DNA of 64,000 nucleotides from the NCBI GenBank assembly GCA_030390025.1, contig CM059432.1, forward strand, positions 88,910,001-88,974,000. The letters are read 5' to 3'. The stretch is from Squalus acanthias (Eukaryota). How positions within the stretch are numbered: the stretch's first letter is position 1; every line of letters begins with the position of its first letter. The position numbers and the translations under genes were made by a program. The notes beneath the pieces were generated by a model that made no database searches, was not told the origin of the DNA, and saw nothing but the letters and a program-made list of their open reading frames with translations. This document shows positions 878 through 51,799 of this stretch, one piece after another.

Positions 878-1321
878 GTGAATCTAGCATTGATTAGGCC
901 ATCCCTGGCATCACGGGAAGCAAGGTGCTCGCGTACTGGTCACGTTAGGTCAGCTGCCTCCTCCAGGTCTTCCTCTTGCTGGACCTCATTCTGCTCCTCC
1001 TCCTCCTCGTCTGAAGAGGCTGTGCGCTCAGCGCTTTATTCCTCATGCAGCGTTAATCCGCGCTGCAGTGCGATGTTGTGCAAGGCACAGCAGACAACTA
1101 CAATTCTCGAGACCCTGGCTGGTGCATACTGAAGGACTCCACCAGATCTGTCCAGGCATCTGAAGCGTACTTTGAGCAACCCTATTGTTTGCTCTAAGAG
1201 ACTTCTGGTGGAAATGTGACTTTGATTGTAGTGCTCCTCAGACTTGTTTGATGGCCACATCTTCAGAGGATAGCGTTTGTCTTCAAGGAGCTAGCTGGAA
1301 AGTTCGTTTGGCAGTTCCCAT
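878..1321 (-). pseudogene. HARBI1-like DDE transposase, internally deleted (C-terminal part only)
   Basis: YNQSHISTRSLLEQTIGLLKVRFRCLDRSGGVLQY...CCALHN matches the C-terminus of the intact transposase at 5827-6987. Confidence 0.85.
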
Positions 1322-1940: not shown

Positions 1941-3307
1941 GGGCTGTATCTTGCTGGAAATATAATGGTGTGGTAATGATGCAAGCCATTATTAACGTGA
2001 AAATCGGCCACCAAATTCAAGGGATTCAGAGATAGGCATGAGTTGCGAATCTCCAGAACTTGCTGGTAGATTTATACTGCTCCACCACTTGCTTACACAA
2101 ACGGCATCTCACCCTTAACCTTCCCATTATTTTTAAGAACTTGCTGGATTTGCACATTAATTGACCATTAAACTCGCCACAGAAAGTTAAATCTGGTAAT
2201 TAATAGCATAAGTACCCTTTTAATGACATGATAATTGTTAATGCAATGCCAATCAACCTCTCTTGCCCAGAAAGTGAACAATTTAAACAGTTTAATCATA
2301 TTCCTGCATGTAGTAAATTGTTGGAGATTTAAAAAATGTGAAATTTTTAATTTTTTTCTTATTTTGCTTTCTGCTGCTTTTTCTCTGTCTCTCTTAATCC
2401 AATCTTTCTTTCCCTATCTTTATTTCTTTTCTGTACCTGATTTGACTCTAATTCACCTTCCTTCTCTATTGTTCCTCTGTTTCTTGCTCAATCCTTAAGT
2501 CATTTTCGGGTTGACAGGCTGTAACTAGTGGGGTACCGCAAGGATCAGTGCTTGGGCTTCAGCTATTCACAATCTATATCAATGATTTGGATCAGGGGAC
2601 CAAATGTAATATGTCCAAGTTTGCTGATGATACAAAGCTGGGTGGGAATGTAAGTTGTGAGGAGGATGCAAGGAGGCTTCAAGGGGATATAGACAAGCTA
2701 AGTGAGCGGGCAAGAACATGGCAAATGGAATATAATGTGGAGAAATGTGAAGGTATCCACTTTGGTAGGAAAAATAGAAAAGCAGAGTATTTTTTAACTG
2801 GTGAGAGATTGGGAAATGTTGGTGTTCAGAGGGACCTGGGTGTCCTTGTACACGAATCACTGAAAGCTAACATGCAGGTACAGCAAGCTGTTAGGAAAGC
2901 AAATGGTATGTTGATCTTTATTACAAGAGCATTTGAGTATAAGAGTAAAGGGGGTAGAAATTAGGTCGCGCCCCATTTGGGGCGCAAATATCGTCCGCGC
3001 GCAAATATTAGCGCCTGGCGCTAATTATCGGCACTGACAGGAAACTTCACTTTTACCGCCCCGGGAGGTGAGTGGAGCGCTAAATTAGGCGCTGCACACC
3101 TCTCTTAAGGCGCAAAGGCCTAGGAGTGAGGCGCTAACTCAGCGCACGAGCGCAGCGCAGCTGCTGCCAGTTAGCGCGGTAACACAGACACACTGGCGCC
3201 GGACACTTCTTAAAGCGGGGGGGGCCACTTGCTCCCCAGCCACACCCTGCTCATTGCAGCCTTGAATCTCAGCCTGGAGAGACCTGTAATCCATTTTGCT
3301 GCCAAGA

Positions 3308-5532
3308 ATGGAGAGGGTGAGAGAACGCGCTCATCGCTTCACCGAGCGGGCCTTGGATGCTCTGGTTGACGCAGTGGAGCGCAGACGATGCATGCTGTTC
3401 CCAGAGAGTGGCAGGAGGCCTTTGCCACGCGAGTTCAGAAGAGTGTGGAGGGAGGTGGCTCAGAGCGTCTCCTCCAGGAGCATGGTGCCCAGGACCCATG
3501 TCCAGTGCCGCAAAAAGTTCAACGACCTCACTCGGGTCGTCAGGGTGAGTGGCTTTTTCTCAATACCTCTCCATCCCTCCATCTCAACCTCACTCTATGG
3601 CCAGAGGGTCTTAAAACCCCAATGCACAACACTCATCCAACACCTATGGCCCTTTCATCAAACACACACACACATTCCACACTTTGCATACAGTAAGGGC
3701 TATTCACCTATGGGAGGCACATCAGGCAAGACCATGGCTGCATATTGTAAGGGCTATTCACCTATGGGAGGCACATCAGGCAAGACCATGGCTGCATATT
3801 GTAAGGGCTATTCACCTATGGGAGGCACATCAGGCAAGACCATGGCTGTATATTGACTCAGATGCTGTCCTTTTTCTTGCAGGCTAAGCTGGCTCATAAT
3901 CGGAGACAGCAGCAACGGACGGGTGGAGGGCGGCTTCAGCTGCAACCCCTCAGCGATCTGGAGGAGCGCGTCCACAGGATTGTGGCAAGCCGGGTGATCG
4001 GTCCCGTCGCCACTGGAGACGCCGACCCCGTTGTGGACAGCAATGGTAAGGTCATCACCTTTTTGTCCTCTGTCCTTCCACTTGTCCCTCACAATACCAG
4101 CCTTTGACACTTTCAATCCAACTTGCTAACTCGCTGCACTTATTCCTCCCTTACTGCCACCCTGTCCTCACGCTAAAGCCACTCTTGTACCTCCCTGCTT
4201 TCAGATGGTGATTCACCAGCTGAGGAGATGGTCCCTGAAGCTGCCACTGGGAGTGATGCTGCAGCTGAGGAGGAAGAGGAAGCCGGAGCATCAGTGCCAC
4301 CCTCTCCCGAGGAAGCCCATGGCCACACTGGGAACACGCCTTCCCCGGAGGGGAGCAGGGGGGAAGGGGCTGATGATGGTGAAGTTCCAGGACCCAGCGG
4401 GCTGCAGCAACGCCATTGGGGGGGGAGGGAAGAACGGGGGAGCAGGGGGGAAGGGGCTGATGATGGTGAAGTTCCAGGACCCAGCGGGCTGCAGCAACGC
4501 CATGGGGGGGGGAGGGAAGAACGGGGGAGCAGGGGGGAAGGGGCTGATGATGGTGAAGTTCCAGGACCCAGCGGGCTGCAGCAACGCCATGGGGGGGGGA
4601 GGGAAGAACGGGGGAGCAGGGGGGAAGGGGCTGATGATGGTGAAGTTCCAGGACCCAGCGGGCTGCAGCAACGCCATGGGGGGGGGAGGGAAGAACGGGG
4701 GAGCAGGGGGGAAGGGGCTGATGATGGTGAAGTTCCAGGACCCAGCGGGCTGCAGCAACGCCATGGGGGGGGGAGGGAAGAACGGGAGCCTTCTCCCCAG
4801 AGGGAGAGTATGCCAGACACTCCTAATGCAATGGACGCAGAGGAGGAGCGGATGATTGCAGAAATGAACAGCCAGGCGGTGGTCATGCACACTGAGCTCA
4901 TGGGTGCAGTGGGAAGGGTGCCCGAATGCATTGAGGCACTGGCAAGGAGTGTGGAGCACTTCGCTGTAGCACAGGCGGATGCCACACTAAAGCTTACTGC
5001 TGCAATTCAGTCACTGGCTGCCAGGAACCCATCTGAGCCTGCTCTCATGCAGACTCAGATTGAGGCCACGCGAGCACTGACTGCTGCCATCCTCGATGGT
5101 TCGTGCACATGTCTCCGGGGCTGTCACCGCGCCGCAGCAGGCCAGCAATCTGTTCTCAGGCAAATTGCTCCGGATGCTGAAGTGCTGCCCCGTGGGAGTG
5201 CCAGTGTGTCGGGCGAGCAGGGAGTTGCTGTCCTCTCTCACGATGACAGCATTCCTGCTGCCAACACTGTCACTTCTCCACTGCACTTGCCACCGCCTGT
5301 AGGACAGACTGCTGCCGCCCATGCAGAGTTGGTGCAGTCTGCAGCCGGGCCCTCCAGGCCCAGAAGTGGTCGAGGCCGGCCTTCAGGGGCATCTGCAGTG
5401 TCAGGGTCTGACAAGCAGCAGCCTTCCACCAGCCTTGCTGCAGCCACTGAGGTCCCATTACGGAGGAGCAGTAGGGTTAGAAGGGGGGAAGTGCGCAAGG
5501 GAAGGAGATCACCCTCGAAGGGCAAAAAGTAG
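3308..5532 (+). CDS. Harbinger Myb/SANT-like DNA-binding protein; exons 3308-3544, 3883-4045, 4205-5532; about 575 aa
   Basis: SANT motif RFTERALDALV..W.EVA..V..RT..QCRKKFNDL. Canonical GTGAGT/TTGCAG and GTAAGG/TTTCAG splice sites keep the frame open (phase 0, then phase 1). Confidence 0.85.
3693..3854 (+). repeat. 54-bp tandem repeat x3 in Myb intron 1
   Basis: GTAAGGGCTATTCACCTATGGGAGGCACATCAGGCAAGACCATGGCTGCATATT repeated three times. Confidence 0.95.
4351..4785 (+). repeat. 87-bp coding tandem repeat x5 (29 aa, GSRGEGADDGEVPGPSGLQQRHGGGREER)
   Basis: Five near-identical in-frame units at 4351, 4438, 4525, 4612 and 4699. Confidence 0.95.
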
Positions 5533-5826
5533 GAGGTGTGACAAAATGCTGGTCATTTTTTTATTAAAGGCCGAGGTTCATGGCCCAACTTTTGTTTAGT
5601 GTTTTGGACATTATCTCCAGGTTGTGAGAACCAGTTATATTATTGACTGTTTTTTTGTGTTTATTTCTATGAGTTTGTCATGAGGAATTGACACACACAG
5701 AGTTTGTACAATAAATAAGTTTCTGTATTCAAAATATACATGGCTGGTGGTTGGAATTATTGGTGCCTTGGCCGGCTTAGGGGTTGCGTGCTGGGTTGAT
5801 TCGTGTTTGTAGCACTGGCAGGGGCC

Positions 5827-6987
5827 CTAGAAGCGGCTTGCTATTAGTCGTTGACGGACGGCCCTTGCAGTTTGACCATTGTGGGCCGCCCTCCTGCCTT
5901 GGTGCTGCTGCTGATCATCGTCCTCGGCCTGTTCCTCCTCTTCCTCCTCCTCCTCTTGTGGTGCTGCAAGGCCTGGTGGCATTGGCTGCGTCCTGAGGAT
6001 TGCCATGTTGTGCAACATGCAGCACACCACTACGAATTTGGAAACTTGCTCAGGCGAGTACTGCAGGGCTCCTCCGGAATGGTCCAGACAGCGGAATCGT
6101 TGTTTGAGCACGCCGATTGTGCGCTCAATAATGTTCCTCGTTGCTTGTTGGCTTTCCTGGTACCGCAGCTCAGCAGGGGTGTTTGGCGCACGGAGCGGTG
6201 TCATCAGCCAGGTGCTCAATGCGTACCCCTTGTCCCCCAGAAGCCAACCGACTGGCTGATGCGGTGCCTCGAAAATTTCTGCCACAGTACTCTGGCGCAG
6301 GATGAAAGCATCGTGGCAGCTGCCCGGATAGTGGGCATTGACAGCGAGAATCACCTGTCTGTGGTCACAGACCAACTGCACATTCAAGGAATGGAACCCC
6401 TTTCTGTTCCGGAACTCCTCTGCATTCTCTCGCGGAGCACGCAAAGCCACATGCGTGCAGTCAATGGCGCCCTGCACCATGGGGAAGCCCGCTACCCTCG
6501 CAAAGCCCATAGCACGGTCATGCTGCTTGTCTGGGGTCATAGGGAAGGAGATGAAGTCTCGTCTCCTTGTGAAGAGGGCATTGGTGACCTGCCGGATGCA
6601 GCGATGCACCGCAAACTGGGAGATATTGGCGAGGTCCCCAACAGCAGCTTGGAATGAGCCAGTGGCGTAGAAGTTCAAGGCCACTGTGACCTTCACTGCC
6701 ACCGACAGAGACGTCCTGGACCTCAGCTGAGGCTGCAGATCTGGCTGCAGCAGGTGGCAGAGCTCAGTGACCACCTCCTTGCTGAATCGCAGCCTTCGCA
6801 AACACAGCTCCTTGGACATGTGGATGTAGGAGAGCTGTTCACGATATACCCTGGGAGGGTAAGCTCTCCTGTACATGCGCCTGATGGGCCTCCTCCGTCT
6901 GGCCATCATTGCCACTCTCTGTCTGCGTCTCACTCTGCTCCGATTGAGCTGGAGCAGGACGACGCCCCCAATCATTGCAGCCCCCAT
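5827..6987 (-). CDS. HARBI1-like PIF/Harbinger DDE transposase, 386 aa, uninterrupted
   Basis: Catalytic motifs GAIDCTH, LLGDKGY, RNIIERTIG, plus NRKGFHSLNVQ, YPGSCHD and CCMLHN. Confidence 0.95.
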   Translation of the reverse strand: MGAAMIGGVVLLQLNRSRVRRRQRVAMMARRRRPIRRMYRRAYPPRVYREQLSYIHMSKELCLRRLRFSKEVVTELCHLLQPDLQPQLRSRTSLSVAVKVTVALNFYATGSFQAAVGDLANISQFAVHRCIRQVTNALFTRRRDFISFPMTPDKQHDRAMGFARVAGFPMVQGAIDCTHVALRAPRENAEEFRNRKGFHSLNVQLVCDHRQVILAVNAHYPGSCHDAFILRQSTVAEIFEAPHQPVGWLLGDKGYALSTWLMTPLRAPNTPAELRYQESQQATRNIIERTIGVLKQRFRCLDHSGGALQYSPEQVSKFVVVCCMLHNMAILRTQPMPPGLAAPQEEEEEEEEQAEDDDQQQHQGRRAAHNGQTARAVRQRLIASRF

Positions 6988-8304
6988 CTTCTCTTTGCCA
7001 GAAAAGTAATGAGGTACAGCAACGAAAGTAGCAGCAAAGTTAGGATGAACTAGGCAAAACTACCTCACAAAGCGTTGAGTCAATGTAGAAGTCTCTCTCT
7101 CTCTCTCTCCGAATCTCTCTCTCTCTCTCAGAACGAGTGGTGCATAAATGTCGACCACAGAAAAAGACAGGAAGAGGCCCCCTTTAAATAGCGCCCCCCC
7201 CAGCCCCAGACCGATTGATAACGTTCCAGTCTTCCGGTCGTTGGAAGCGCCAGGCGGTAAGGCAGGGGGCGCCACTCAATTTCCGCTCCGGGGCGCCCCA
7301 AGGGCGTTGCACCACGGACTGACGTCACAATCTGCGCGCGCAGGTGGTCGCAGCGGTAAGTTTTAGCGCTGCCGCACAATCTCAAGTTAAGTTCTCGAGC
7401 GGCGCAAACAGCGCTGCGCCCGGGCGTTAGCGCCTTAACGCCCCATTAGCGCCCATTTAAGGCGCTAACGGGAGGCGCAACCAACTGAATTTTTACCCCA
7501 AGATGTCTTACTGCAATTATAGCGGGCCCTGGTGAAACCACACCTGGAGTATTGTGTACAGTTTTGGTCTCCTTACCTAAGGAAGGATATTCTTGCCATA
7601 GAGGGAGTGCAATGAAGGTTCACCAGACTGATTCCTGGGATGGGGGAATTGTCCTATGAGGAGAGATTGAGTAGACTAGGCCTATATTCTCTAAAGTTTA
7701 GAAGAATGAGAGGTGATCTCATTGAAACATACAAAATTCTTACAGGACTTGACAGGGTATATGCAGGGAGGATGTTTTCCCTGACTGGGGAGTCTAGAAC
7801 CAGGGGTCACAGTCTCAGAATAAGGCATTGGCCATTTAGGACTGAGATGAGGAGAAATTTCTTCACTCAAAGGGTGGTGAATCTTTGGAATTCTCTACCC
7901 CAGAGGGCTGTGGAGGCTCAGTCATTGAATATATTCAAGACAGCGATCGATAGATTTTTGGATATTAAGGGAATCAAGGGATATGGGGATAGTGCAGAAA
8001 AGTGGAGTTGAGGTAGAAGATCAGCCATGATCTTATTGAATGGCAGAGCAGGCTCGAGTGGCCAAATGGCCTACTCCTGCTCCTATTTCTTATGTTCTCA
8101 TTGGTTAAGGAGATACACTATTGGTCTTGCCATTCGCTAAGGTCCCAGATGTCCTATTGGCCTTGCCGCGCTGTTATCAGCTCGCACTTCCAACACGTTA
8201 CGGTGCAAAATATTTTTGAGCTAAAGGGTGCAGGAAAAAGTCTAACTAACGCCATACACTGCAAGATGCCCCACTCCAGCAAGATCTGGCATGATGGATC
8301 ACAA

Positions 8305-8435: not shown

Positions 8436-8677
8436 TGTTGAGGCTGCCGCGAAACACGAATTAAGGCTGAATCCATGTGTGGAAAACAAGAGACTTTTTT
8501 AATACCACTGCATGGCACAAAATGGCTGAACCGACTGCTCCCAGAATTCTCTGGAAAAATCCTGAGGCCCCACCCACTCCTGCCTTAAAGGTAAGGTGCC
8601 TTAAAGGGAAGGTGCATCGATATATTGTCCATGGACGGAAAAGTGGATAATGCCCGTTTAGGTGGCGATCCGCCACA
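8436..8677 (-). repeat. 3' LTR
   Basis: Differs from 12537-12778 at only 2 positions. PPT TCTGGGGGGAGCTG (minus strand) is adjacent at about 8678-8691. Confidence 0.95.
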
Positions 8678-8697
8678 CAGCTCCCCCCAGAATCCAC

Positions 8698-11229
8698 TTA
8701 GGAGGTGTGGACGAGATGGTGCGGCGGTCTGATGGGCCGGCCGGAGCGGCTCTTGTAGGATGCCGGTGGACGTGGAACGGCCGGACGTGGAGCAGCCAGG
8801 TGAACCGGCTTGAGGGCAGGTCGGCCGCGTGGAGGTGGACGAGCTACAGGGACCTGCTCACCGGGCGCCGAGTGTGCTGGCTTGAGTCGGTCAACCGACA
8901 CTTTTTCGGTCCTGTCGCCCACTTGCAGGGTGAAAAATTTGTCCCCAGCCTGTAGCACCTTGTAGGGCCCGTCGTACGGGGGTTGAAGGGGTCCATGGTG
9001 GGCGTCGTGCCGGACGAAAACAAACCGTACCTGGTGCAGGCTTAGTGGGACGTGTGAGGTGGATTCACCGTGTCGGGCAATGGGCACCGGGGCGAACTGC
9101 AGCGCCGGTGAGGCGAAGTCATGGCGTTGCTGGTTGGCTGACCAGTGTGTCATGGCGGTGGGCAGGAACTCGCCGGGTACGCACAGCGGCTGACCGGACA
9201 CGAGCTCTGCTGCCGATGCGTGGAGGTCTTCTTTAACCGCGGTGCGTAGGCCGAGGAGGACCCACGGAAGTCGGTCGGTCCAGGCGCCGTCCTGGAGGCT
9301 GGCTCGAAGAGATGCTTTCAAGGATCTGTGGAACAGCTCACACAGTCCGTTGGCTTGGGGGTGGTACGCTGTGGTGCGGTGAATGGTCACCCCGAGATTG
9401 CGTGCGACGGCGGTCCAGAGTTCAGAGGTAAATTGCGGACCTCTGTCCGACGTCATGTCGGAGGGGACGCCGAACCGTGCGACCCAGGTGCTGACGAAAG
9501 CTCTGGCGATGTCGGCGGTGGTGGTAGAGATCAGTGGAATTGCCTCGGGCCAGCGTGTGGTGCGGTCAACGATGGTCAGCAAGTGCGTGTGGCCTTGCGA
9601 CGGCAGCAGGGGCCCGACGATGTCCACGTGGATGTGGTCGAATCTCCGCGAGGGGACGGTAAACTCCTCGAGGGGTGCTTTCGTGTGTTGCTGTACCTTG
9701 GCCCGTTGGCAGGCTAGGCAGGAGTTGGCCCAAGTACGCACATCCTTGCGAAGGCCACGCCAGACGAAGCGGTTGGCTACCAATTTGATGGATGCGCGGG
9801 CGCCTGGGTGGGAGAGGTTGTGGAGAATGTCGAATACCCGGCGGCGCCAGGACGCTGGGACGACAGGCCAAGGTTGACATAGGGATATGTCGCACTTCAC
9901 CGTGACTGCGGTCGGGCCACAGGCAACGTCAGCCAGGCGTAGCCCTGGTAGGTTGGTGGGTGTGGAGAGCAGATCAGGGTCGGTGATCTGGTCTGCTGCG
10001 AGTTGAGCGTAGTCGACTGCCAGGTGTGCGGCGTGGATGGCGGGGCAGGAGAGGCAGTCGGCTACCACATTGTCTCGGCCGGAGACGTGTTGGATGTCCG
10101 TGGTGAACTCGGACACTGCCGCGAGCTGGCGCTGCTGCCTGGCGGACCAGGGGTCGGTTGTCTTTGCCATTGCGAATGTCAGGGGCTTGTGGTCGACAAA
10201 CGCAGTGAAGAGGTGGCCCTCAAGCAAAAACCGGAAATGGCAGACCGCCAGGAACAGCGCGAGGAGCTCGCGGTCGAAGGTGCTGTACTTGACCTCCGGG
10301 GGGCGTAGTTGGCGGCTGAAAAAGGCAAGTGGTTGCCAGGTGCCGTCGACCCACTGCTCATACACGGCGCCGACCGCGTGTTCGGAGGCGTCCGTGGTGA
10401 GCGCTACCCTGGCATTGGGCCGTGGGTGCGCGAGCAGGGTGGCGTTGGCAAGCACGGTCTTGGTGGAGTCGAAGGCGGCGGACGCGTCTGCCGTCCATTC
10501 GACCGCCATCTTGCCGCTCCTGCCCTGGAGGGCTTCATACAGGGGCCTCATGAGAGACGCCGCTTTGGGGATGAAGCGGTTATAGAAATTCACCATCCCG
10601 AGGAACTCCTGGAGGCCTTTGATGGTGGTGGGGCAGGGAAATTGTTGGACGGCCTGCACCTTGGTGGGCAGGGGAATGGCCCCAGCATGGGTGATGTGGT
10701 GGCCGAGGAAGTCGATCTTGTCCAGGCCGAACTGGCATTTGGCTGGGCTGAGGATGAGCCCGTGGTCGCTGAGGCGCCCGAACAGGATGCGAAGGTGTTC
10801 GAGGTGTTCCTGCTTGGAGGAACTGGCTACCAGGATGTCGTCCAGGTAGACGAACAGGAACTTCAGGTCCTGAAGGACCGAGTCCATGAGCCGTTGGAGT
10901 GCCTGGGCCGCGTTTTTGAGGCCGAAGGGCATCCGCAGGAACTCGAACAGGCCAAAGGGGGTGATTACGGCCGTCTTGGGGACATCCGCGGGGTGGACGG
11001 GGACTTGGTGATAGCCACGCACCAGGTCGACCTTGGAAAAGACTGAGCGGCCGGCCAGTCTAGCCGAGAAGTCCTGAATGTGCGGCACGGGGTACCGATC
11101 AGGGGTGGTGGCGTCGTTGAGGCGGCGGTAATCCCTGCAGGGGCGCCAACCTCCGTCTGGTTTGGGGGCGATGTGGAGTGGGGAGGTCCAGGGACTGTTG
11201 GAGCGGCGGATGATGCCGAGCTGTTCCAT
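8698..11229 (-). CDS. Gypsy Pol (RT, RNase H, integrase), 843-aa open frame downstream of a premature stop
   Basis: VYLDDIL (RT); TDAS and DRELLA (RNase H); H..HPG..C..C and HVDIVG/SDRG (integrase). Confidence 0.92.
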   Translation of the reverse strand: MEQLGIIRRSNSPWTSPLHIAPKPDGGWRPCRDYRRLNDATTPDRYPVPHIQDFSARLAGRSVFSKVDLVRGYHQVPVHPADVPKTAVITPFGLFEFLRMPFGLKNAAQALQRLMDSVLQDLKFLFVYLDDILVASSSKQEHLEHLRILFGRLSDHGLILSPAKCQFGLDKIDFLGHHITHAGAIPLPTKVQAVQQFPCPTTIKGLQEFLGMVNFYNRFIPKAASLMRPLYEALQGRSGKMAVEWTADASAAFDSTKTVLANATLLAHPRPNARVALTTDASEHAVGAVYEQWVDGTWQPLAFFSRQLRPPEVKYSTFDRELLALFLAVCHFRFLLEGHLFTAFVDHKPLTFAMAKTTDPWSARQQRQLAAVSEFTTDIQHVSGRDNVVADCLSCPAIHAAHLAVDYAQLAADQITDPDLLSTPTNLPGLRLADVACGPTAVTVKCDISLCQPWPVVPASWRRRVFDILHNLSHPGARASIKLVANRFVWRGLRKDVRTWANSCLACQRAKVQQHTKAPLEEFTVPSRRFDHIHVDIVGPLLPSQGHTHLLTIVDRTTRWPEAIPLISTTTADIARAFVSTWVARFGVPSDMTSDRGPQFTSELWTAVARNLGVTIHRTTAYHPQANGLCELFHRSLKASLRASLQDGAWTDRLPWVLLGLRTAVKEDLHASAAELVSGQPLCVPGEFLPTAMTHWSANQQRHDFASPALQFAPVPIARHGESTSHVPLSLHQVRFVFVRHDAHHGPLQPPYDGPYKVLQAGDKFFTLQVGDRTEKVSVDRLKPAHSAPGEQVPVARPPPRGRPALKPVHLAAPRPAVPRPPASYKSRSGRPIRPPHHLVHTS

Positions 11230-11259
11230 GGTGGCAAACTCGGTCCGCGCGATCTCCAG

Positions 11260-12496
11260 TTAGGTCGGGTCCAGCCTGCGGGCGTGGGCGTACACTGGGG
11301 GGCCTGTGGTGGGGATGAAGTGTTCCACCCCGTGTTTGGCGGCCTCCGCGGAGAAGGTCGGATTGGTAAGGGCCGGGAAATCGGCCAGGAGTGCCGAGTA
11401 GTCATCCGTGGCCCGGGCGTGGCACTGTGACGCCATGTCGGCGGGTTGACGGGGAGCCATGGCGCCCAGGATGGGGGACATGGTGTTCATGTCCACGAGG
11501 CGGTGACGGGGGATGTCTACCAGTAGGCCGTGGGCGCACAGGAAATCTGCGCCGATGAGAGGGGAGAGCACCTTGGCAGTGATGAACTCCCATCGGTAGC
11601 GGCGACCAGCGAGGTCGAGGGTGACTGTCCGGGTGCCATACGTCCAGATTTCCGAGCCGTTAGCAGCAGCCAGCGCCGCTCCTCGTTCGCCCTTTTGGAT
11701 GTCGAGGGAGGAGGCCGTGATGATGCTGTGCTGAGCCCCAGTGTCGCACAGGAACCGGCGGCCGGTTTTGTCATCCGTGACGAACAGCAGGGAGCCCACG
11801 TGGCCCACGGCCATCGCGGGGGCTGGTACGGGGGCAGACTTGAAAGAGCAGGGAGGTGTGCACCGTTGTGCCCTGGCGCCGAACCATGCGTGGTAGTAAT
11901 AGTGGGGCGTGAAGGCCCCGTGGGCCTGGTGGCAGGCCCTTGTGGCTGCGTGGTGGCCGGTGAGGGGCGCGCCAGGCATTGGCTGCCAGGTCCGGAGTGA
12001 CGTCGCGGCTGGAGTGAGCGGACAGCAGCTTGTCGGCCTCATCAGCCAGGGCTTCCAGGTTCGTGAGGCCGGATGCCACGATCGCTGGGCGGATGCTGAG
12101 AGGGAGCTGGCGGATGAACAGCGTGCGGAAGAGGGATCCGGGTGGGCTCTCGTCGGTGAGGGAGAGCATGTGGGAGAGGAGGTCTGATGGTGAGGCATCA
12201 CCGAGGCCTGGAAGGTCGAGGAGGTGGCAGTTTCGCTGATATGCCGAGGCCGTAAATTTTTTAAGGAGCGCTGTCTTGAGATGTGTGTACTTGCCTTCCT
12301 CTGGTGGGTTCTGCAGTGCTGTCCAAACCTTCGAAACTGTGGCACTACCGAGTGATGTGATGAGATAGTCGTACTTCGTCCCATCTGTGGTTATGTTTCG
12401 TAGCCGGAAGCGAGATTCAGCTTGGAGAAACCAGGCTTTGGGCTGGTTTTCCCAAAACTCCGGCAGTTTCACGGAAACTGCGTTCGTGTCCGCCAT
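11260..12496 (-). pseudogene. Gypsy gag-protease region with one frameshift (about 11900-12000) and an in-frame TAA at 11260-11262
   Basis: Gag KLPEFW..WF.QAE; degenerate CHCC knuckle YYYHAWFGARAQRCTPPC; protease FLCDTGA. The stop is in frame with Pol. Confidence 0.85.
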
Positions 12497-12521
12497 TGCA
12501 GTGCTCGGAGTACGTTCTGAG

Positions 12522-12535
12522 CGTCGGGGTCACCA
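12522..12535 (-). promoter_or_regulatory. Primer-binding site complementary to tRNA-Trp
   Basis: TGGTGACCCCGACG, one base inside the 5' LTR. Confidence 0.9.
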
Positions 12536-12536
12536 A

Positions 12537-12778
12537 TGTTGAGGCTGCCGCGAAACACGAATTAAGGCTGAATCCATGTGTGGAAAACAAGAGACTTTTT
12601 TAATACCACTGCATGGCACAAAATGGCTGAACCGACTGCTCCCAGAATTCTCTGGAAAAATCCTGAGGCCCCGCCCACTCCTGCCTTAAAGGTAAGGTGC
12701 CTTAAAGGGAAGGTGCATCGATATATTGTCCACGGACGGAAAAGTGGATAATGCCCGTTTAGGTGGCGATCCGCCACA
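12537..12778 (-). repeat. 5' LTR
   Basis: Direct repeat of 8436-8677, followed by TSD ATAG. Confidence 0.95.
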
Positions 12779-15924: not shown

Positions 15925-18689
15925 CATTTATGTGTTAGCTTTCTCTTACGCATGCTTCTACGTTGTGCTACCCCTGTGGCTTCAGCAAATGTAGAGACAG
16001 CCTGCTAACTTCCCTGCTGCACCTGCTTAAACGCCTTTGGCGTCATCCTCTGGGTTTTGGAGCCTTTGAAGGCCCCGCCAAAGTCTGTTCCTCCTGCGGC
16101 TGCATAGGGGCAGACTTGGCCATCACTGCTCCGGCAGTCATCTGGGGCTCTGACCGAGGGGTTGGCAAGTAGATGGAAGTTGGAGTGCTTGGAGAGGAGC
16201 CCCCACTTGCATGTCCCCTCCCACCATCATCCCTCTCATGGGCCACCCACACCTCTCTGCTAGCAAGTAGCTGGAGAGCACCTTGCTGCACATCAGTGGG
16301 GCCATGAGGACCCGTCTCTGTACTGACAGTCCTCATAACGGGGACGTCCATGGACCTCTGGATCTTCTCCACGATAGATGCCCATCTATCCTTCATAGCT
16401 GACCATCTATTTAGAAGTGTCACCATGTTCATTTGAGTCTGGCGATTTATGTCCTCCATGGAGGTTGCCATCCTTTCCATGGTGGAACCTACATTTGTCA
16501 TTGAGTGCACCACAGCATTGCTCATATTTGAGATGGACTCCTCCATTCTCTGCACACTCGCAGTCACCGTGGTTGCAAACCCAGTCAGAGCCTCCTGCAC
16601 TTGTTCCTGAAACTCCAGCCCTGCTCTCTTTCTGGATGGCCAGTGCTGAGCAGAACTAGGAGTGTCCTGCGGCCTCCGACAAGGAGTCTCCACTGCTGTC
16701 CCTGTCTCCACCATCTGCTTTTGCTCACTTGTGCATTGTGATACACCAGGTGACAACACTACTCTATCTCGCAAACGACCCACTGAGGTATGCGTCTCTG
16801 CACTGGTGCTGGGTGTGCTAATTTGTGCTGACACTGCTCCCTCAGAGGATGCAGCATCCTCTGAGGAGTCCTCTGGTGCTTCCTTCTGGGCAGTAGGGAG
16901 GGGGGCTCTTGATAGTCCTGTGGGAGAGTAAAGTCATGAGTTAGACATGTGATATGTAGATTGCAGACACATCCCATTGTGCACATGATGAGCATTCAAT
17001 TTCTATTGACATCAGATGCCATATGTGTCACTCATGAATGCCAAATAAGATAGATGGAGAAGCATTCTGTCACCAGGTTGTTCAACTGAGCCCGTCAATC
17101 TATCCCTCACTTCGAGCTGTTCCACTAATCCCACAATGTCCAGTGCGGCCTCCTCAGCATTGGTCAGCTGTGATAAGGATGGTGGTCATGGAGTCATAGG
17201 GCAGAATTTTCATTGACCCGTGGAGGTGGGTTTGGAGGCGTGTGGGGGGTTAAAATTGTGAAAACTGGCGGGCAAGCACAAGCCCGCCTCCATCCCGCCT
17301 CCACGCAGGTCCCGACTCCGTTCCGCCTCTAAGAGGCGGGATAGGCTATTAAGGCCCTTAATAAGCACTAAATTGCCTCTATAATGCCATTTTGAAAGGC
17401 CTTTGTGATTTTAACCCTTTTTCTACGTGAAGCACGCCTGTTCCGAACCACGAATGTGAAACCTGGTGGGAGCACATTTGGATAGCTGACTATCAGCTGC
17501 AGGTCCACTATTACAACAGAGATGTGATGATGATGTTGTAGTAGTAGTAGTAGGAGGAGGAGGAGGAGGAGGAATAATAATAATAATAATATCTGGGAGT
17601 GGTGGAGGTACAAAAATATCTGGGAGCAGACTTAGGGCTGCTGCTCATTTTGCCTCCAGGTCCTCTCACAGCAAAGGCCAGGCAGTCTTTGCAGACCTTC
17701 AATGCAGTAGCAATGATGACATCATCAGAGGCGACTTTCAGACTGAAAACACTAATTGGGTCATGGGTTCCCACATGCTGGAACTCAATTGCCCAATTAG
17801 GTGAAAATCGCATCAATCTCCCACATCCAATTGCAGTCGGGTGGATAACACGAAAAGTGGATGACAGAACCCCAACCCGCCCCAGTATCAAAATCCAGCC
17901 CATAGAGTCATAATGGCACAGTAGGAGGCCATTCGGCCCATCGAGTCCATGCCGGCTCTCCGTAGAGCAATCCAGTCAGTCCCATTCCCCCGCTCTATCC
18001 CCGTATCCCTGGAACCATTCTGGTAAATCTCCTCTGCACCCTCTCAAGAGCCTTCACGTCCTCCTCCTGTTCTCTCCCTCTCCCCCTTATTGTGGCCTCT
18101 CTTTTCCTGCAATGAGGGAAAGAAGTAGAGTTTCAGTGAGAGTGATAGAATGTGTGTAAAGAATGGATAGGATAGATGTTTAGAGAGAGACTGTGAAGGA
18201 GTGGGTTCCCATTACGAAGTTCCCTGCTTTTGAGTTGTAAGTTGTTGTCAGTGCATAACCTTGAGGGTGAGTGTGAGGGGTGCATAGTAAGATGGGGAAG
18301 TGACTCTGTGCCTTGGGAGAGAGGGATGGGGATTGGTGCAAGGGATGTTGGGTTGAGTTAGGATGTGCAGGAGTAGTGTTACCAATGCAGAATGATGGGG
18401 ATGTGATGACAGGCACAGCACAATTAAGGTAACTGTGCTTTTATACTCACTTTTTCAGAGCGCAGGAGATCATTAAACCTTTTCCTGCATTAGACCCAGG
18501 TGCGTCTGTACATAGACCTGGCATTGACCTCCTCAGCTATTCACAGCCAGGTTGCCTTTGTCTGCTGAGGAGGTTTCCTTCTTCCATCAGCTGGGTATAG
18601 GACCTCCCGACGTCCTCTGACTCCCTCCACAACAACATGGAGGAGTCTTCGTTGAAGCGGGGAGCTGCCTTTTGTTTCTCTGCAGACAT
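15925..18689 (-). pseudogene. Harbinger Myb/SANT gene with stops, a frameshift and a disrupted exon 2
   Basis: Exon 1 (18451-18689) reads MSAEKQKAAPRF...TWL*IAEEVNA..RTWV*CRKRFNDL. Exon 2 EKRGHNKGERERTGGG / PPSLSQLTNAEEAAL is split by an insertion. The last exon contains ORF 16043-16834. Confidence 0.8.
17199..17901 (+). mobile_element. About 700-bp Harbinger MITE (family C, copy 1), inserted in a CR1 tail fragment (about 17187-18058, minus)
   Basis: TIR GGGCAGAATTTT / AAAATCCAGCCC; TSD ATA; homologous to 60875-61547. Confidence 0.85.
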
Positions 18690-19394: not shown

Positions 19395-19761
19395 GGGGGG
19401 GAAATTCGGTTGCTTTGCGCCTCCCGTTAGCGCCCTAAGAGGGCGCTAATGGGGTGCAAAGCAACTAGCGCCCGGGTGCGGCGATGTTTGCGCCGCTCGC
19501 GAAATTGATGAAATTTTGCGGCAGCACTAAACACTACCGCCACGATCTCCTGCGCCGGCAGATCGTGACGTCAGTCGAGCGTGCAACGCCCCGGTAGTGC
19601 CCTGGACCGGATATTGAGTGGCGCCCCCTGCCTTACCACCTGCCGCTAGCAACGACAGGTTGAGGGGAGCGTTTTGCATTCGGGAAGGGACTGGGGGAGC
19701 GCTATTTGAAGGCGACCGCTTCCTGCCTTTTTTTGTCACTGACATTTTTGCACCACGCATT

Positions 19762-19796
<35 letters not shown>

Positions 19797-20295
19797 CTGG
19801 AGAGATTCAATGCTGAGTGAAGGAGTTTTGGGTACTGAGCAGCACTTTGCAGGTTCATTTTGATTTGACCTTCCTTGCATCGATTTAGAAGAGACTACGG
19901 GGGCTGCACTCTGAGCTCTTTCCCTGGGACTCTCCATTGTTCTTTCCAGCAGAGTTGATGTACAGGTCTCTCCAAGCCGAGATTCAAGGCTGCAATGAGC
20001 AGGGTGTGGATGGAGAGCAAGATCGAGCCTCCCCTTTAAGAACAGACTAGCGCCAGCAATGTGTTCTATTGCTGACTGACATCACATGAGCTTCGCCAGC
20101 GCTCTGAGGTAACGCCTCACTCCTCGGTGTTAGTGCCTTAAGACAGATGTGTAGCGCCTGATTTAGCGCTCCAATCACCTCCAGGGGCGATAGAAGCCAA
20201 GTTTGCAGTTGGAGGTGATAATTAGCGGCAGGCGCTAAACTTTGCGCCCGGCCGATAATTGCGCCCCAAACGGGGTGATACCGAATTTCTCCCCC
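19395..20295 (-). mobile_element. Non-autonomous deletion derivative related to Harbinger family A
   Basis: Both ends align to the ends of 2951-7499, including the (GA)n tract and the Myb start (MESPRERA vs MERVRERA). Confidence 0.85.
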
Positions 20296-27180: not shown

Positions 27181-30100
27181 AGAGGGATGAGGTCCTGCAA
27201 CAAGAATTTAGGGAGCTAGGTAGCAGATCAAAAAGCAGGACCTCAAAGGTTGTAATCTCTGGATTACTCCTGGTGCCACGTGCTAGTGAGTATAGGAATA
27301 GGAGGATAGAGCAGATGAATGCGTGGCTAAAGAGTTGGTGCAGGAGGGAGGGCTTTAGTTTCCTGGATCACTGGGTCTGTTTCTGGGGAAGGTGGGACCT
27401 GTACAAGTCAGACGGGTTGCACCTGAACCGGAACGGGACCATCATCCTTGCGGGGAGGTTTGCTAGTGCTGTTGGGGGGGGTTTAAACTAACTTGGCTGG
27501 GGGATGGGATACGGAGTGGAGCTATAGTAGGGGGTGATGCACAGCCAAATATAGAGGAATAAACAAGTCAGTCTGGAAGGCAGAGCAAATATGTAACGGC
27601 ACAAGGGAGTATGGCAAGGCTGGATGGCATTTATTTTAATGCAAGGAGTCTTACGAGTAAGGCAGATGAATTGAAGGTGTTGATGAACACATGGGAGTAT
27701 GATATTGTTGCTATCACAGAGACATGGTTGAGGGAGGGCAGGACTGGCAGCTCAATATTCCGGGGTACAGAATCTTCAGGCGAGACAGAGGGGGGTGTAA
27801 AAGAGGAGGGGGTGTCGCAATATTAATCAAGGAGTCAATTACTGCTGTAAGGAGGGAAGATATCTTAGCAGGTTCCTCTAATGAGGCCATATGGGTAGAA
27901 CTTAAAAACAAAAAGGGGGCAAGCACTTTGCTGGGAGTGTACTATAGGCCCTCAAACATTCAGGGGAGATAGAGGAACAGATATGTAGGCAAATCTCAGA
28001 GAAGTGTAGAAATAATAGGGTAATAATAGTAGGGGATTTCAACTTCCCCAATAGTAACTGGGATAGTCAGAGTGTGAAAGGCTTAGAGGGTGCGGAATTC
28101 TTAAAGTGCATCCAGGAGAGCTTTTTGAGCCAGCATGTAGAAAGTCCTACAAGAGAGGGGGCGGTACTGGACCTAATTCTAGGGAATGTAGCCGGGCAAG
28201 TGGTAGATGTGTCAGTAGGAGAGCATTTTGGTGACAGTGACCATAATTCGGTGAGATTTAAGGTAGTCATGGAAAAGGACAAAGATGGACCGGAAATAAA
28301 GGTTCTAAATTGGGGGAAGGCCGATTTTAATATGATAAGGCAGGATCTGGCCAAAGTGGACTGGGATCAGCTACTTGTAGGAAAATCCACATCAGAGCAG
28401 TGGGAGTCTTTCAGAAAGGAAATGGAGAGAGTACAACGCCAACATGTTCCCGTAAAGGTCAAGGGTGGGACCAACATGCCCAGGGAACCCTGGATGTCAA
28501 GGGATATACAAGAATGGATTAGGAAAAAAAGGGAGGCTTTTGGCAGATACAAAGGGCTAAAAACAGTGGAAGCCCTAGAGGAGTATAGAAAGTGCAGGGG
28601 GATACTTAAAAAAGAAATTAGGAGAGCAAAGAGGGGGCATGAAAAATCACTGGCGGGCAAAATAAAGGAAAATCCCAAGGTGTTTTATAAGTATATTAAG
28701 GGCACGAGGATAACCAGGGAAAGAGTAGGGCCCATTAGGGACCAAAGTGGCAATCTGTGTGTAGAGCCGGAAGATGTAGGTGAGGTTTTAAATGAATATT
28801 TTGCATCTGTGTTCACTATGGAGAAGGACGATGTAGGCATAGAAATCAGGCAGGAGGATTGTGATATACTTGAACAAATTAGCATTGAGAGGGAGGAGGT
28901 ACTAGCGGTTTTAGCAGGCTTAAAAGTGGATAAATCCCCAGGCCCAGACGAGATGTATCCCAGGCTGCTGTGTGAGGCAAGGGAGGAGATTGCAGGGGCT
29001 CTGACACAAATTTTCAGATCCTCTCTGGCCATAGGGGAGCTGTCAGAGGACTGGAGGACAGCTAACGTAGTATCATTATTCAAGAAGGGTAGTAGGGTTA
29101 AACCAGGGAATTACAGGCCAGTGAGCGTAACATCAGTGGTAGGGAAATTATTGGAAAAAATTCTGAGGGACAGAATTAGTCTCCACTTGGAGAGGCAAGG
29201 ATTAATCAAGGATAGTCAGCATGGCTTTGTCAGGGGGAGATCATGTCTAACCAATTTGATTGAATTTTTCGAGGGGGTGACTCGGTGTGTGGATGAGGGT
29301 AGTGCAGTTGATGTAGTCTACATGGACTTCAGTAAGGCTTTTGACAAAGTCCCGCATGGGAGACTGGTCAAGAAGGTAAGAGCCCATGGGATCCAGGGCA
29401 ATTTGGCACATTGGATCCAAAATTGGCTTAGTGGCAGGAGGCAGAGGGTAATGGTCGAAGGTTGTTTTTGTGACTGGAAGCCTGTGTCCAGTGGTGTACC
29501 GCAGGGATCGGTGCTGGGTCCCTTGCTGTTTGTAGTGTACATTAATGATTTAGATATGAATGTAGGAGGTATGATCAGTAAGTTCGCAGATGACACGAAA
29601 ATTGGTGGAGCGGTAAATAGCGAGGAGGGAAGCCTCAGGCTACAGGACGATACAGACGGGTTGGTCAGATGGGCAGAACAGTGGCAAATGGAATTTAACC
29701 CTGAAAAGTGTGAGGTGATGCATTTTGGGAGGACTAACAAGGCAAGGGAATACACAATGAATGGTAGGACTCTAGGAAGGACAGAGGATCAGAGGGACCT
29801 TGGTGTGCATGTACATAGGACAGGTAGATAAGGTGGTTAAGAACGCATATGGGATACTTGCCTTCATTAGCCGAGGCATGGAATATAAGAGCAGGGAGGT
29901 TATGATGGAGCTGTACAAAACACTAGTTAGGCCACAGCTGGAATACTGTGTGCAGTTCTGGTCGCCACACGATAGGAAGTATGTGATTGCATTAGAGAAG
30001 GTGCAGAGGAGATTCACCAGGATGTTACCTGGGCTGGAGCGTTTCAGCTATGAAGAGAGACTGGACAGGCTGGGGTTGTTTTCCTTAGAGCAGAGAAGGC

Positions 30101-30485
30101 TGAGGGGGGACCTGATTGTGGTGTACAAAATTATGAGGGGCAAAGATAGGGTAGATAGAAAGGAACTTTTCCCCTTAGTAGAGGGGTCAATAACCAGGGG
30201 GCATAGTTTCAAGGTAAGGGGCAGGAGGTTTAGAGGGGTTTTGAGGAAAAACTTTTTCACCCAGAGGGTGGTTGGAATCTGGAACTCACTGCCTGAAAGG
30301 GTGGTAGAAGCAGGAACCCTCACAACATTCAAGAAGCATTTAGATGAGCACTTGAAATGCCATAGCATACAAGGCTATGGACCAAGTGCTGGAATGGGAT
30401 TGGAATAGATCGGGCTTGATGGCCGGTGCAGACATAATGGGCTGAAGGGCCTCTTTCTGTGCTGTATAACTCTATGACTCTATGA
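27181..30485 (+). mobile_element. CR1 LINE: ORF1 esterase C-terminus plus complete but frameshifted ORF2
   Basis: ORF1 SGNH motif LYKSDGLHLN. APE motifs NARSL, ITETWL, GDFN, SDH. RT motifs GVPQGSVLGP, KFADD. (CTATGACT)n tail. Confidence 0.95.
27611..30408 (+). pseudogene. CR1 ORF2 (APE endonuclease + RT), disrupted
   Basis: Split into ORFs 27611-27826, 27724-27972, 28074-29831 and 29800-30408. Confidence 0.9.
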
Positions 30486-35096: not shown

Positions 35097-35588
35097 GTTT
35101 AGCAGTGAGAGAATCTCCCAGAATTCACAATTTAAACACAGACAAAATATATTCAAATCTTTCCCACATCAAAGAGCATAGCCAAGACAATGAGATGTGT
35201 CCCAGGGGGTCCAACGTGTCAAACCACCTGCTGGTTGCATATCCTGTCAATCTGTGTAGGTTCTTGTGTTAGCCTTTTTAAAAAAAAAACACCTGGGAAG
35301 ACCGGCCATGATGTCAAGTCACGTTCTGTATCGTGACATGAACCCGATATCGCGATTGAGGCCCTCCTCATGAGTGCGGAACTTGGCTATCAGTTTCTGC
35401 TCTATGATTTTGCGCTGTCGTGTATTTCGAAGGCCGCCTTGGAGAACGCTTACCCGCATATCCGAGGCTGAATGCCCCTGGCTGCTGAAGTGTTCCCCGA
35501 CTGGGAGGCAACCCTCCTGCCTGGCGATTGTTGCGCGGTGTCCGTTCATACGTTGTCTCAGTGTCTGCATGGTCTCGCCGATGTACCA

Positions 35589-37755
35589 GACGAAATCGAA
35601 GTTCTCGCCCTAGGGCTCAAGTTCTGCCCCACCACCAAAATGGACCCCATCGGTCTCGCGGCGGACACAGAGGAATTCATCAGGAGAATGAGGATCAGGG
35701 AATACTACCACAAATCCCAAGATGTCAGCAACATTCCTAATGGGACAATCAATGATCCGGAACAGCAGGCAGTGCTACAACCGAGGAAGAAAGAGTCAAA
35801 TTGGACCCCTCCGGAGGGTCGCAACCCTAAGCTTGACATGTATGCTCAAGCTGTCAGGAAATGCATCAACGCCAGATTCATCAGCCGTACTCACAAGACA
35901 GTCCAGAATGTCACCCGAGCACAACGCAACGCCATCCACGCACTCAAGACCAACCGCAACATCGTCATCAAACCAGCGGACAAAGGAGGAGCCATGGTCA
36001 TACAGAACAGAATGGACTATTGCAAAGAAGCATACCGACAACTGGACAACCAGGAACACTACAGACAGCTACCCGCAGATCCGACCAAAGAACACACCCG
36101 CCAACTCAATAGACTGATCAAGACCTTCGATCCAGACCTTCAAAACATCCTACGCGCTCTCATCCCACGTACTCCCCGCGTAGGAGACTTTTACTGCCTC
36201 CCAAAGATACACAAAGCCAACACACCCGGACGTCCTATCGTATCAAGCAACGGAACCCTGTGTGAGAACCTCTCTGGGTACGTCGAGGGCATCCTGAAAC
36301 CCATCGTACAGGGAACCCCCAGCTTCTGTCGCGACACTACAGACTTCTTGCAGAAACTCAGCACCCATGGACCAGTTGAACCAGGAACACTCCTCGTCAC
36401 AATGGACGTATCGGCACTCTACACCAATATCCCCCACAATGACGGCATCGCTGCGACAGCCTCAGTACTCAACACGAACAACAGCCAATCTCCGGACGCC
36501 ATCCTACAACTCATCCGCTTCATCCTTGACCACAATGTCTTCACCTTCGACAACCATTTTTTTACCCAAACACACGGAACAGCCATGGGGACCAAATTCG
36601 CACCCCAATATGCCAACATCTTCATGCACAAGTTCGAGCAAGACTTCTTCGCTGCACAGGACCTCCAACCAACGCTGTACACCAGATACATCGACGACAT
36701 CTTCTTCCTTTGGACCCACGGCGAAGGATCACTGAAAGGACTACACGATAGCATCAACAGGTTCCATCCCACCATCAAACTCACCATGGACTACTCCTCA
36801 GAATCGGTTTCATTCTTGGACACACGAATCTCCATCAAAGACGGACGCCTCAGCACTTCACTCTACCGCAAGCCCACGGACAACCTCACGATGCTCCACT
36901 TCTCCAGCTTCCACCCTAACCACGTTAAAGAAGCCATCCCCTATGGACAAGCCCTGCGAATACACAGGATCTGCTCAGACGAGGAGGAACGCGATGGACA
37001 CCTACGGACACTGAAAGACGCCCTCGTAAGAACGGGATATGACGCTCGACTTGTCGATCGACAGTTCCGACGGGCCACAGCGAAAAAACCGCATAGACCT
37101 CCTCAGAAGACGAACACGGGACACAACCAACAGAGTACCCTACGTCGTCCAGTACTTCCCCGGAGCGGAAAAACTACGCCATGTTCTTCGCAGCCTTCAA
37201 CATGTCATCGATGACGACGAACACCTTGCTAAGGCCATCCCCACGCCTCCACTACTCGCCTTCAAGCAGCCGCCTAACCTCAAAAGTACCATCGTTCGCA
37301 GCAGATTACCCATCTTTCAGGCGAACAGCAACCAAGACACCACACAACCCTGCCACGGCAACCTCTGCAAGACATGCCAAATCATGGACACAGATACCAT
37401 CATCACATGTGAGGACACTACCCACCAGGTACACGGTACATACTCATGTGACTCGGCCAACGTTGTCTACCTGATACGTTGCAGTAAAGGATGCTCCAGA
37501 GCATGGTACATCGGCGAGACCATGCAGACACTGAGACAACGTATGAACGGACACCGCGCAACAATCGCCAGGCAGGAGGGTTGCCTCCCAGTCGGGGAAC
37601 ACTTCAGCAGCCAGGGGCATTCAGCCTCGGATATGCGGGTAAGCGTTCTCCAAGGCGGCCTTCGAAATACACGACAGCGCAAAATCATAGAGCAGAAACT
37701 GATAGGGCCTCAATCGCGATATCGGGTTCATGTCACGATACAGAACGTGACTTGA
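35589..37755 (+). pseudogene. Penelope RT + GIY-YIG endonuclease; 5'-truncated, frameshift at about 37083, 23-nt deletion at about 37703
   Basis: KPADKG, LPKIHK, GRPIVS, GTAMGT, RYIDD; PCHGNLCKTC linker; NVVYLIRC...YIGET. Confidence 0.92.
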
Positions 37756-47772: not shown

Positions 47773-48912
47773 AACGATCAAAAATAACCTGGCAATATTA
47801 CACATCATAAAAGACTAAGCAAGTGAATTTCCTCTATGTACACTGAGAGTGTATTAGATGAGATTTCATTTTTCACTTTCTTTAAAGCACACATGCAGGA
47901 AATCGGTGCACTTTATATTAAAGATGCATTACTATTGCTGCATATCTGATAATCCAAACTGAACTCAAATCCAATGATGAATCACTCACTGACCACCCAA
48001 ATAACTATGTAGCCAGCACATTTAATCCATTGTAGATCAATTGTCGTGAAGTTTTCAATTAATTGTTACTGGAACAAACACAGAAAACATGAAAGTCCAT
48101 TGTACAGACTGGGCCCTGCAGACTACTGTAGTTGGTGTGGGGGGCCGGGAGAATACTCCCCGAAGCAGAAATGCAATCAACTAATAAATATAGTCCTGAA
48201 ATTGTGGGGCGCGGGGAGGGTATTTTTACAGTGCAATTTCTGTGGGGAGGCGGAACCTGGATCTGGTCGAGTTCTGCCCCTTTTCAGCCGTATCTGAAAT
48301 CCCAGCAATTTAGGGAGCCACCCCAGAATATGCCAGCCCACAATAAGGTGGGTGTATTATAATGGATGTAAATTAGGAAAATACAGACAACATCCAACGT
48401 AAAAAGAAGGACTTGTATTTATATAGCGCCTTTCACAACCTCAGAATGTCTCAAAGCACTTTACAGCCAATGAAGTACTTTTGAAGAGTACTCTCTGTTT
48501 TAATGCAGGAAACATGGCTTCCTCATCTATGCCCTTAGCAACGCTCGATGTCAAGAATGCTTGTGAGGAAGGGAGGCATTCTTAAATTCCGAGGCCAATT
48601 TTGAACTGCAAGGCGGCAGCAGTAATTCAATTTTTTTTTCTGACTGTTGTCAAGCCCTTCAGGCCTGATGCTATGACGAGGTATCGCAGTGAAATTTCTT
48701 TTGTTTCAGATAGGCACACCAGTCCCACATGAAATGGTGTGGGTACTTGCCCAAGATATATTGAATAGCCTAACTCCAGGAATCCCAATAGGGCACAGAG
48801 GATGAGCGGATGATGCACTCCCCCCACTATCTGCGCTCACCCCCGCCCCCCCCCCCCCACCCCGCCCCGGCTCTTTCTTGCAAGGCCTTCCCAGGAATTT
48901 CAGGGCCTAGAG

Positions 48913-51599: not shown

Positions 51600-51799
51600 G
51601 CCTAGAGAATTTAGCATGCATGGGAAACTCAAGCAACAGGTGAATAGATGGGACGATGAACAACATAGGTTGTAATGAAGAGTATAGACCCAAAATGTCA
51701 GACCTCGTTTTTTCTCTTCAGACTTGCTGACTGACCTGTTACCTATTTCCTGCCTTTTCCATTTTATTTGCCTCCTGGCTTTAATTTCCTCCCTTTGGC

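Follow-up and report, generated by a model that had tools for sequence, protein, structure and literature searches.

Is an uninterrupted Harbinger transposon in a shark genome a recent and possibly still active element, or a copy that was inserted long ago and has kept its reading frames? The question is raised by a stretch of 64,000 nucleotides from Squalus acanthias (GenBank assembly GCA_030390025.1, contig CM059432.1, positions 88,910,001 to 88,974,000 of the forward strand; hereafter the window, in whose own numbering all positions are given), in which positions 2951-7499 form an element of 4,549 bp with both ends and two genes. We consider it, with a probability of about 0.75, to be a full-length two-gene PIF/Harbinger DNA transposon that lies in a dead CR1 long interspersed nuclear element (LINE), belongs to a very abundant family and was inserted likely millions of generations ago, not recently. 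That both proteins of this copy are still functional we consider somewhat less likely than not.

The element carries 12-bp terminal inverted repeats (TIRs) that are short and imperfect: the left one (2951-2962, + strand, starting with GGGG) and the right one (7488-7499, - strand) agree at 11 of 12 bases, and at 13 of 16 over the first 16, and they were absent among the 25 longest inverted pairs of the repeat finder. The left end type recurs in a deletion derivative at 20295. The right boundary at 7499 was found in four of the four end joints displayed from X1 and X2, two of the four runs aligned to positions 4790-7640 (2,851 bp, including 141 bp of CR1 flank; run X9 is the only one outside organism A). 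The flanking target-site duplication (TSD) is a perfect AAG (2948-2950, identical to 7500-7502). By arithmetic, a match of 11/12 at fixed ends has a chance of about 2e-6 and a 3/3 TSD one of about 0.016. The interrupted host is the C-terminal part of a CR1 reverse transcriptase (+ strand), which runs from 2515 to 2947 and resumes from 7503 to about 8011. Removal of the element and one TSD yields a single unbroken frame of the CR1 reverse-transcriptase region, with a Pfam match to RVT_1 in the left flank, although the CR1 is a dead copy in its own right: a stop codon follows a few codons past the insertion site. Taken with the frames described below, which agree with those of the family, this supports a structurally complete two-gene PIF/Harbinger element. 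The original prediction of two TIRs, of a perfect AAG duplication that restores the CR1 and of CpG-rich ends therefore holds, with the qualification on the length and quality of the TIRs.

The ratio of observed to expected CpG is 0.86-1.09 at the element ends versus 0.44-0.48 in the flanks. A 7-bp motif, which reads TTAGCGC on one strand or the other, was found five times in the left subterminal region (2963-3250) and four times in the right one (7200-7487); the counts are the same for the first and the last 300 bp, versus none in 36,902 bp of background. The left region would contain a promoter and the right region likely the transposase promoter, while the motif itself is probably the binding site of the Myb protein, because of what is described for Harbinger3_DR in the available text of PMC2836001 and PMC9392472. 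A 0.9-kb, internally deleted relative is present at 19395-20295 (-), in which the left 383 bp and the right 440 bp of the focal element are joined (77-78% identical) and the ends are likewise CpG-rich. We considered CpG-rich ends as a sign of youth and rejected this: the ends of the 78%-identical derivative give 0.78 and 1.07 versus 0.94 and 1.17 for the focal element, and those of another family 1.04 and 1.0. As both are just as CpG-rich, this property cannot date the copy, although the elements used for comparison are themselves undated.

The first of the two genes, on the forward strand, is predicted to consist of three exons (3308-3544, 3883-4045 and 4205-5532), separated by predicted introns with GT..AG borders (3545-3882 and, in phase 1, 4046-4204). 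When joined, the exons encode 575 aa without an internal stop. Exon 1 (79 aa) specifies a Myb domain (PF13873, 38.3 bits versus a cut-off of 21.7, E=1.3e-9) and is 43% identical to residues 8-82 of P0006, an annotated protein of a sawshark, and exon 2 aligns with residues 83-116 of the same protein (34 aa, 56% identity, E=1e-8). The first junction (3544/3883) is supported by homology, because P0006 aligns to exon 1 through residue 82 and to exon 2 from residue 83; the second (4045/4205) is predicted from consensus splice sites and the open frame. To this extent the three-exon Myb/SANT gene of about 575 aa with canonical splice sites that had been proposed is recovered, and with it the separate second gene for a Myb/SANT-like protein that is a feature of the superfamily. 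Among 158 candidates only one longer protein matched exon 1, and that protein was without a match to exon 2. Intron 1 holds a tandem array of 3.2 copies of 54 bp (3685-3855). Exon 3, an open frame of 451 codons, would encode an acidic/glycine linker with five 29-aa repeats, a helical segment and a basic C-terminus (a putative nuclear localisation signal). The repeats are specified by an in-frame tandem array of 87 bp (4350-4786; five copies, 99% identical), which accounts for 145 of the 575 aa. No Pfam domain was found in exon 3, and no homologue of exon residues 195-441 at E<=0.001 among 8,000 candidates. The part of exon 3 at 4790-5532 was covered in all four runs, with no coding indel listed. 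A convergent 3' region of 294 bp (5533-5826), in which each strand has putative poly(A)-signal hexamers (+: 5563, 5710; -: 5560, 5660), separates this gene from the second one.

The second gene (5827-6987, - strand, ATG at 6987 and stop at 5827) encodes a transposase of 386 aa of the DDE_Tnp_4/HARBI1 type (PF13359, 130.6 bits versus a cut-off of 24.8, E=5e-38). Its frame is without internal stop, in line with the uninterrupted DDE transposase claimed before, and the triad D176/D252/E288 is intact, as are R284 and K295. There were 361 homologues at E<=1e-20, and the figures that follow are from the 120 listed. The top 65 were all annotated in sharks or rays, with a best identity of 65-66% and a range of 54-66% in the top ten, which points to a cartilaginous fish as the likely host. 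These transposases belong to the same clade as the focal one and carry the annotation 'putative nuclease HARBI1', for instance P0001 and P0002 of Pristiophorus japonicus. None of the database proteins among the matches listed was more than 66% identical, so the family of this element appears unrepresented among them. Of 139 columns with a conservation of at least 70% in the 120 homologues, the transposase has the conserved residue at 133, which ranks it second of 121; for columns with a conservation of at least 80% in 68 distant homologues with an intact DDE triad, the figure is 48 of 50. A search of PDB sequences gave a single low-complexity chance match. Upstream of the start codon, a short intron may lie in the 5' untranslated region (6990-7070, -; a donor-like site near 7068 and an acceptor-like one directly before the ATG), to which none of the joints displayed from the reads corresponded.

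Two substitutions adjoin the predicted catalytic helix, N277Q and H280Q, and the former, placed beside that helix by its position in the sequence, is the one serious departure of the transposase. Among the 68 distant homologues residue 277 is N in 64 and Q in two, and the column is one of 16 nearly invariant ones in an alignment of 90 sequences; Q at 280 is frequent (11/68). The majority letters of the family itself point away from Q at both positions. These observations, together with the 14 out of 17 displayed differences in Myb exon 3 that change a residue, speak for a copy that is frame-intact yet functionally dead through missense, chiefly N277Q, and that was mobilised in trans by majority-type enzymes. 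We regard this as quite possible, at somewhat less than even odds: the retained triad, R284 and K295, the conservation that is second best of 121 and the natural occurrence of Q277 in two distant homologues count against it. It is compatible with an old insertion into the CR1, as it concerns present competence only. Moreover, at the two corresponding sites (6148 and 6159) the majority letter is missing from 20-40% of the depth of runs X1, X2 and X17, and for that reason Q277 and Q280 are better explained as alleles of a subfamily than as private damage.

Parts of the element were found by a word search in 20 of the 24 listed runs, under six organism codes. Organism A, with five DNA runs from two samples, one of which may be the source, had 0.82-0.88 of the element words, and the runs of the five other codes, DNA or untyped, had 0.47-0.79. 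Horizontal transfer among the six codes is not claimed on this basis, as the codes may stand for close relatives or for mixed samples. On the 2,851 bp that were aligned, CR1 flank included, 23,860 contig pieces were placed from X1 and 39,371 from X2, and summed depth on the element had a median of about 4.8e5 (X1) and 5.8e5 (X2), compared with some 10-200 for X1 contigs that contain rare joints. Copies of the family would, as a rough estimate, be on the order of thousands, summed depth being no copy number. Depth in the interior is about one third of that near the element end, which implies that many copies keep internal sequence. Run X17, the type of which is only guessed as RNA, covers both genes and also the intergenic and end regions, within a stretch (4790-7640) that lies outside the Myb introns. 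None of the listed runs with parts of the element is recorded as RNA, and for X17-X20 this type is a guess.

It is in the light of this abundance that two further explanations can be judged, namely that the genes are a domesticated host pair resembling HARBI1/NAIF1, or that the locus is an assembly artefact. The database label of the homologues would suit the former, and private differences could arise if copies of so abundant a repeat were collapsed or joined into a mosaic during assembly. Nevertheless, TIRs, TSD, insertion into a CR1 and the very high abundance of the family are the marks of a transposon, all 30 bins of the aligned region are covered in all four runs, and the homopolymer-rich 87-bp units stay in frame. 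Both explanations are largely refuted by this and we consider them highly improbable.

With respect to divergence, the copy is about 1-3% away from most members of its family. Five long X9 contigs with few differences depart from it at 18 of 1,459 bases (1.2%), and three other listed X9 pieces differ more. Another letter is present in at least 1/10 of the depth at 81-105 of the 2,851 places (2.8-3.7%). The variant listing displayed 40 of 122 rows, 37 of them inside the element, and five of these 37 sites are near-private to this copy, with another letter in at least 96% of the depth in all four runs (5114, 5639, 6813, 6888 and 7370); they include the changes to P34 and K59 in the transposase, the latter a CpG-type change from E to K at a position that is mostly acidic in homologues. 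Three indel rows were listed over 4790-7499, all non-coding, and no coding indel or stop. The best DNA runs of organism A are without 12-18% of the sampled words of the element, which corresponds to 0.4-0.6% of the bases, provided that these are not index losses. The claim of a recent, possibly still active element is not sustained by these figures (18/1,459 differences, five near-private sites, 12-18% of words lacking in organism A); depth and divergence indicate a very abundant family, with this copy at about 1.2% from the long X9 contigs, and near-identical long copies were absent among the contigs listed.

The mutation rate reported for the epaulette shark, 7e-10 per generation (confidence interval 1.4-14.1e-10; available text of PMC10587355), translates 0.18-0.56% divergence into 2.6-8 million generations; if the upper confidence limit is taken as the rate, the figure falls to 1.3-4 million. 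Both estimates assume neutral change after insertion. Since even the lowest divergence figures thus amount to millions of generations, the qualification 'recent' is doubtful and an age of millions of years is likely.

The same data bear on the alternative of a young copy from a minority subfamily that is still mobile and carries Q277/Q280, with this copy or its sisters as the current source elements. In its favour are the two open frames, the perfect TSD, the 99% identity within the 87-bp array and the sizeable part of the depth that non-majority letters make up at 6148 and 6159. Q also occurs naturally at both positions in distant homologues with an intact triad, six of the 12 transposase differences displayed leave the residue unchanged, and the words that are absent from the runs of organism A would also fit an insertion that is lacking in those individuals. 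A fresh copy, however, is expected to share nearly all words with its donor, the near-private changes include that to K59, no long near-identical contig was found among the matches listed, and the presence of 0.47-0.79 of the words under five other organism codes fits a burst that predates several species splits. We therefore consider a young origin unlikely.

Several observations nevertheless weigh against an old insertion. Short pieces with an identity of at least 99% are present (3,344 of 23,860 in X1 and 6,564 of 39,371 in X2), and hence some room is left for a young subfamily near this copy, while a residual X1 depth of about 240-310 at three of the near-private sites could stem from a few sister copies. 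Many of the differences lie in clusters and are common to a large part of the depth (5023-5038 and 6139-6159), which suggests subfamily or mosaic alleles rather than decay, and the transposase differences are half silent (6/12) with more transversions than transitions, unlike decay driven by CpG. Clustering and transversion excess suggest that lineages which were once active have diverged from each other, or that copies are mosaics. In addition, the divergence picture rests on the 40 rows displayed, and the pedigree rate was borrowed from another shark.

The end joints also revealed where the family inserts. In the four displayed joints of X1 and X2 the last bases of the element run into CR1 sequence at other positions than here, namely at two sites, 7544 and 7564, and all resolve to boundary 7499. 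They are other insertions of the family into other CR1 copies and confirm the right terminus. In the CR1 flank of the window, 7544-7546 and 7564-7566 thus correspond to triplets that were hit in other CR1 copies, the former with three different triplets. The half-site NWST is present on both sides of the triplet at two of 123 CR1-flank positions, exactly 7544 and 7564, and the focal insertion site fits it on both sides as well; the background rate is 0.066 per half-site and 0.0043 for both. The target can be read as a palindrome, ASWN-[NWN]-NWST, of which the central three bases are duplicated. The central triplet is AAG here and CTG, GTG, TTA, TTG and ATA at other insertions (right flanks only), with a middle W as the only common feature. 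An extended palindromic target of the type known from NuwaI and Harbinger3_DR is thus seen at the focal and at both other landing sites, with a motif that is partly post hoc. This target is qualified by the fact that it was partly drawn from the same joints that test it, that the sites are few and that the left half-sites at the other insertions were read from the CR1 of the window as a proxy. Independent fits were found for one loose end in X9, for the ends at 20295 and 63186 and for both ends of another family (53605/56295). The derivative end at 19395 did not fit, and among loosely matched termini 7 of 23 pattern hits did, including the two focal ends, many of the hits being no true ends.

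By analogy with other Harbingers, the two proteins may be assigned complementary roles on this element. Both are described as required, with the Myb-like protein binding the ends and bringing the transposase to the nucleus, and with the transposase excising the element and inserting it into an extended target with a 3-bp duplication (available text of PMC2836001, PMC9179366 and PMC9392472). If the shark element behaves like Harbinger3_DR and Ping/Pong, its Myb/SANT protein would recognise both the ends and the subterminal repeats of the 7-bp motif and would carry the DDE transposase into the nucleus, and the latter would excise the element and place it in a palindrome of the type ASWN-[NWN]-NWST, with duplication of the central three bases.

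Other transposable elements were observed in the window. Relatives of the Harbinger type include a fragment at 1060-1320 (-), a broken transposase of another family at 46066-47377 (-; 57-68% protein identity, PF13359 on the C-terminal piece), an element at 53605-56295 with matching 12-bp ends, triplets ATT/ACT, two half-sites that fit NWST and a Myb-like exon (55191-55361, -), and an element of about 610 bp at 62577-63186, the ends of which are related to those of the focal element. Another Myb-like exon was found at 18460-18648 (-), of which a 296-codon open frame at 16043-16933 (-) may be the last exon. Of other types are a Gypsy-type long terminal repeat (LTR) retrotransposon (8436-12778, -; 242-bp LTRs that are 99% identical, with gag-like (DUF7041), reverse transcriptase, RNase H and integrase domains over separate frames), CR1-type endonuclease and reverse transcriptase frames (27948-30408), a Penelope-like reverse transcriptase frame (35472-37755, +; RVT_1) with a second frame that had no Pfam match and that we take to resemble GIY-YIG, and an element with 22-bp inverted ends (48907-51605) and a 638-codon open frame (49124-51040, -), without a Pfam match at E<=0.001 and presumably similar to hAT/Buster.

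[quoted passage not shown] The TWA duplication of the strict PIF/Harbinger group (Han et al. 2015) was not found here (AAG) and is seen in one of the five other inferred triplets (TTA), and the CWG of NuwaI and Harbinger3_DR was not found either, CTG being present at one other insertion, read from the right flank only. The NuwaI group, as described for animals in the available part of Han et al. 2015 (PMC4482050), has TIRs of 12-61 bp starting with GGG, an average length of about 4.46 kb and open reading frames for DDE and Myb/SANT proteins, all of which resemble the shark element with its 12-bp TIR starting with GGG, its 4,549 bp and its two genes. However, NuwaI is defined there by CWG duplications and the 16 genomes listed in that part include no cartilaginous fish. 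Because the CWG duplication is lacking, we do not file the element in this group.

Harbinger3_DR of zebrafish, a reconstructed element (Sinzelle et al. 2008, as cited in the available text of PMC3016246, PMC2836001 and PMC9392472), has the same two genes, DDE transposase and Myb-like, a 3-bp TSD and an extended palindromic target, and its consensus target AAACACCWGGTCTTT (PMC3016246) fits the ASWN-[3]-NWST pattern of the shark element. Compared by description only, it differs in that it was rebuilt from a consensus, whereas the shark copy is open as it is, and in that CWG is not strict in the shark family (AAG, plus CTG, GTG, TTA, TTG and ATA). Harbinger-Snek of sea kraits, with 269 intact two-gene copies in L. 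colubrina, one in L. laticaudata and RNA reads over both genes according to the cited part of PMC8437027, is likewise a massively expanded vertebrate Harbinger with intact two-gene copies and deletion derivatives. Its origin is placed there in horizontal transfer within 15-25 million years, whereas the relatives of the shark element are many families across sharks and rays, and a long residence in these animals fits such a distribution.

Tourist/Harbinger elements are the commonest DNA transposons in the repeat table of the grey reef shark (available text of PMC12498223), while the cited part of PMC9179366 reports Harbingers as absent from the elephant shark and recommends other cartilaginous fish for examination. 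No description of a full-length shark Harbinger was found in our literature search, Repbase, Dfam and most subscription papers being outside it. The type of element, the two-protein mechanism, the target preference and the existence of intact vertebrate copies are already known, and the gain is incremental unless activity is shown. The suggestion that the copy is a candidate genetic tool is upheld in so far as the transposase is without visible inactivation, which makes it a reasonable candidate for an assay, and falls short in that neither the element type nor the idea of its use as a tool is new.

What the copy does provide is a complete picture of how an abundant shark family is built, from its ends and subterminal motif to its two genes, together with its target preference. 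In the sources cited above as far as available, transposition in cells was demonstrated with a vertebrate Harbinger that had been reconstructed, and an open natural copy is thus a cheap candidate for an assay. It is conceivable, though improbable, that a shark Harbinger subfamily is mobile without reconstruction, tolerates N277Q and H280Q and reads a strict flanking palindrome ASWN...NWST with almost any central NWN triplet. If so, it would be a native two-component transposon of vertebrates with a new target specificity, and would offer both a tool and a direct test of which of the two proteins reads the target.

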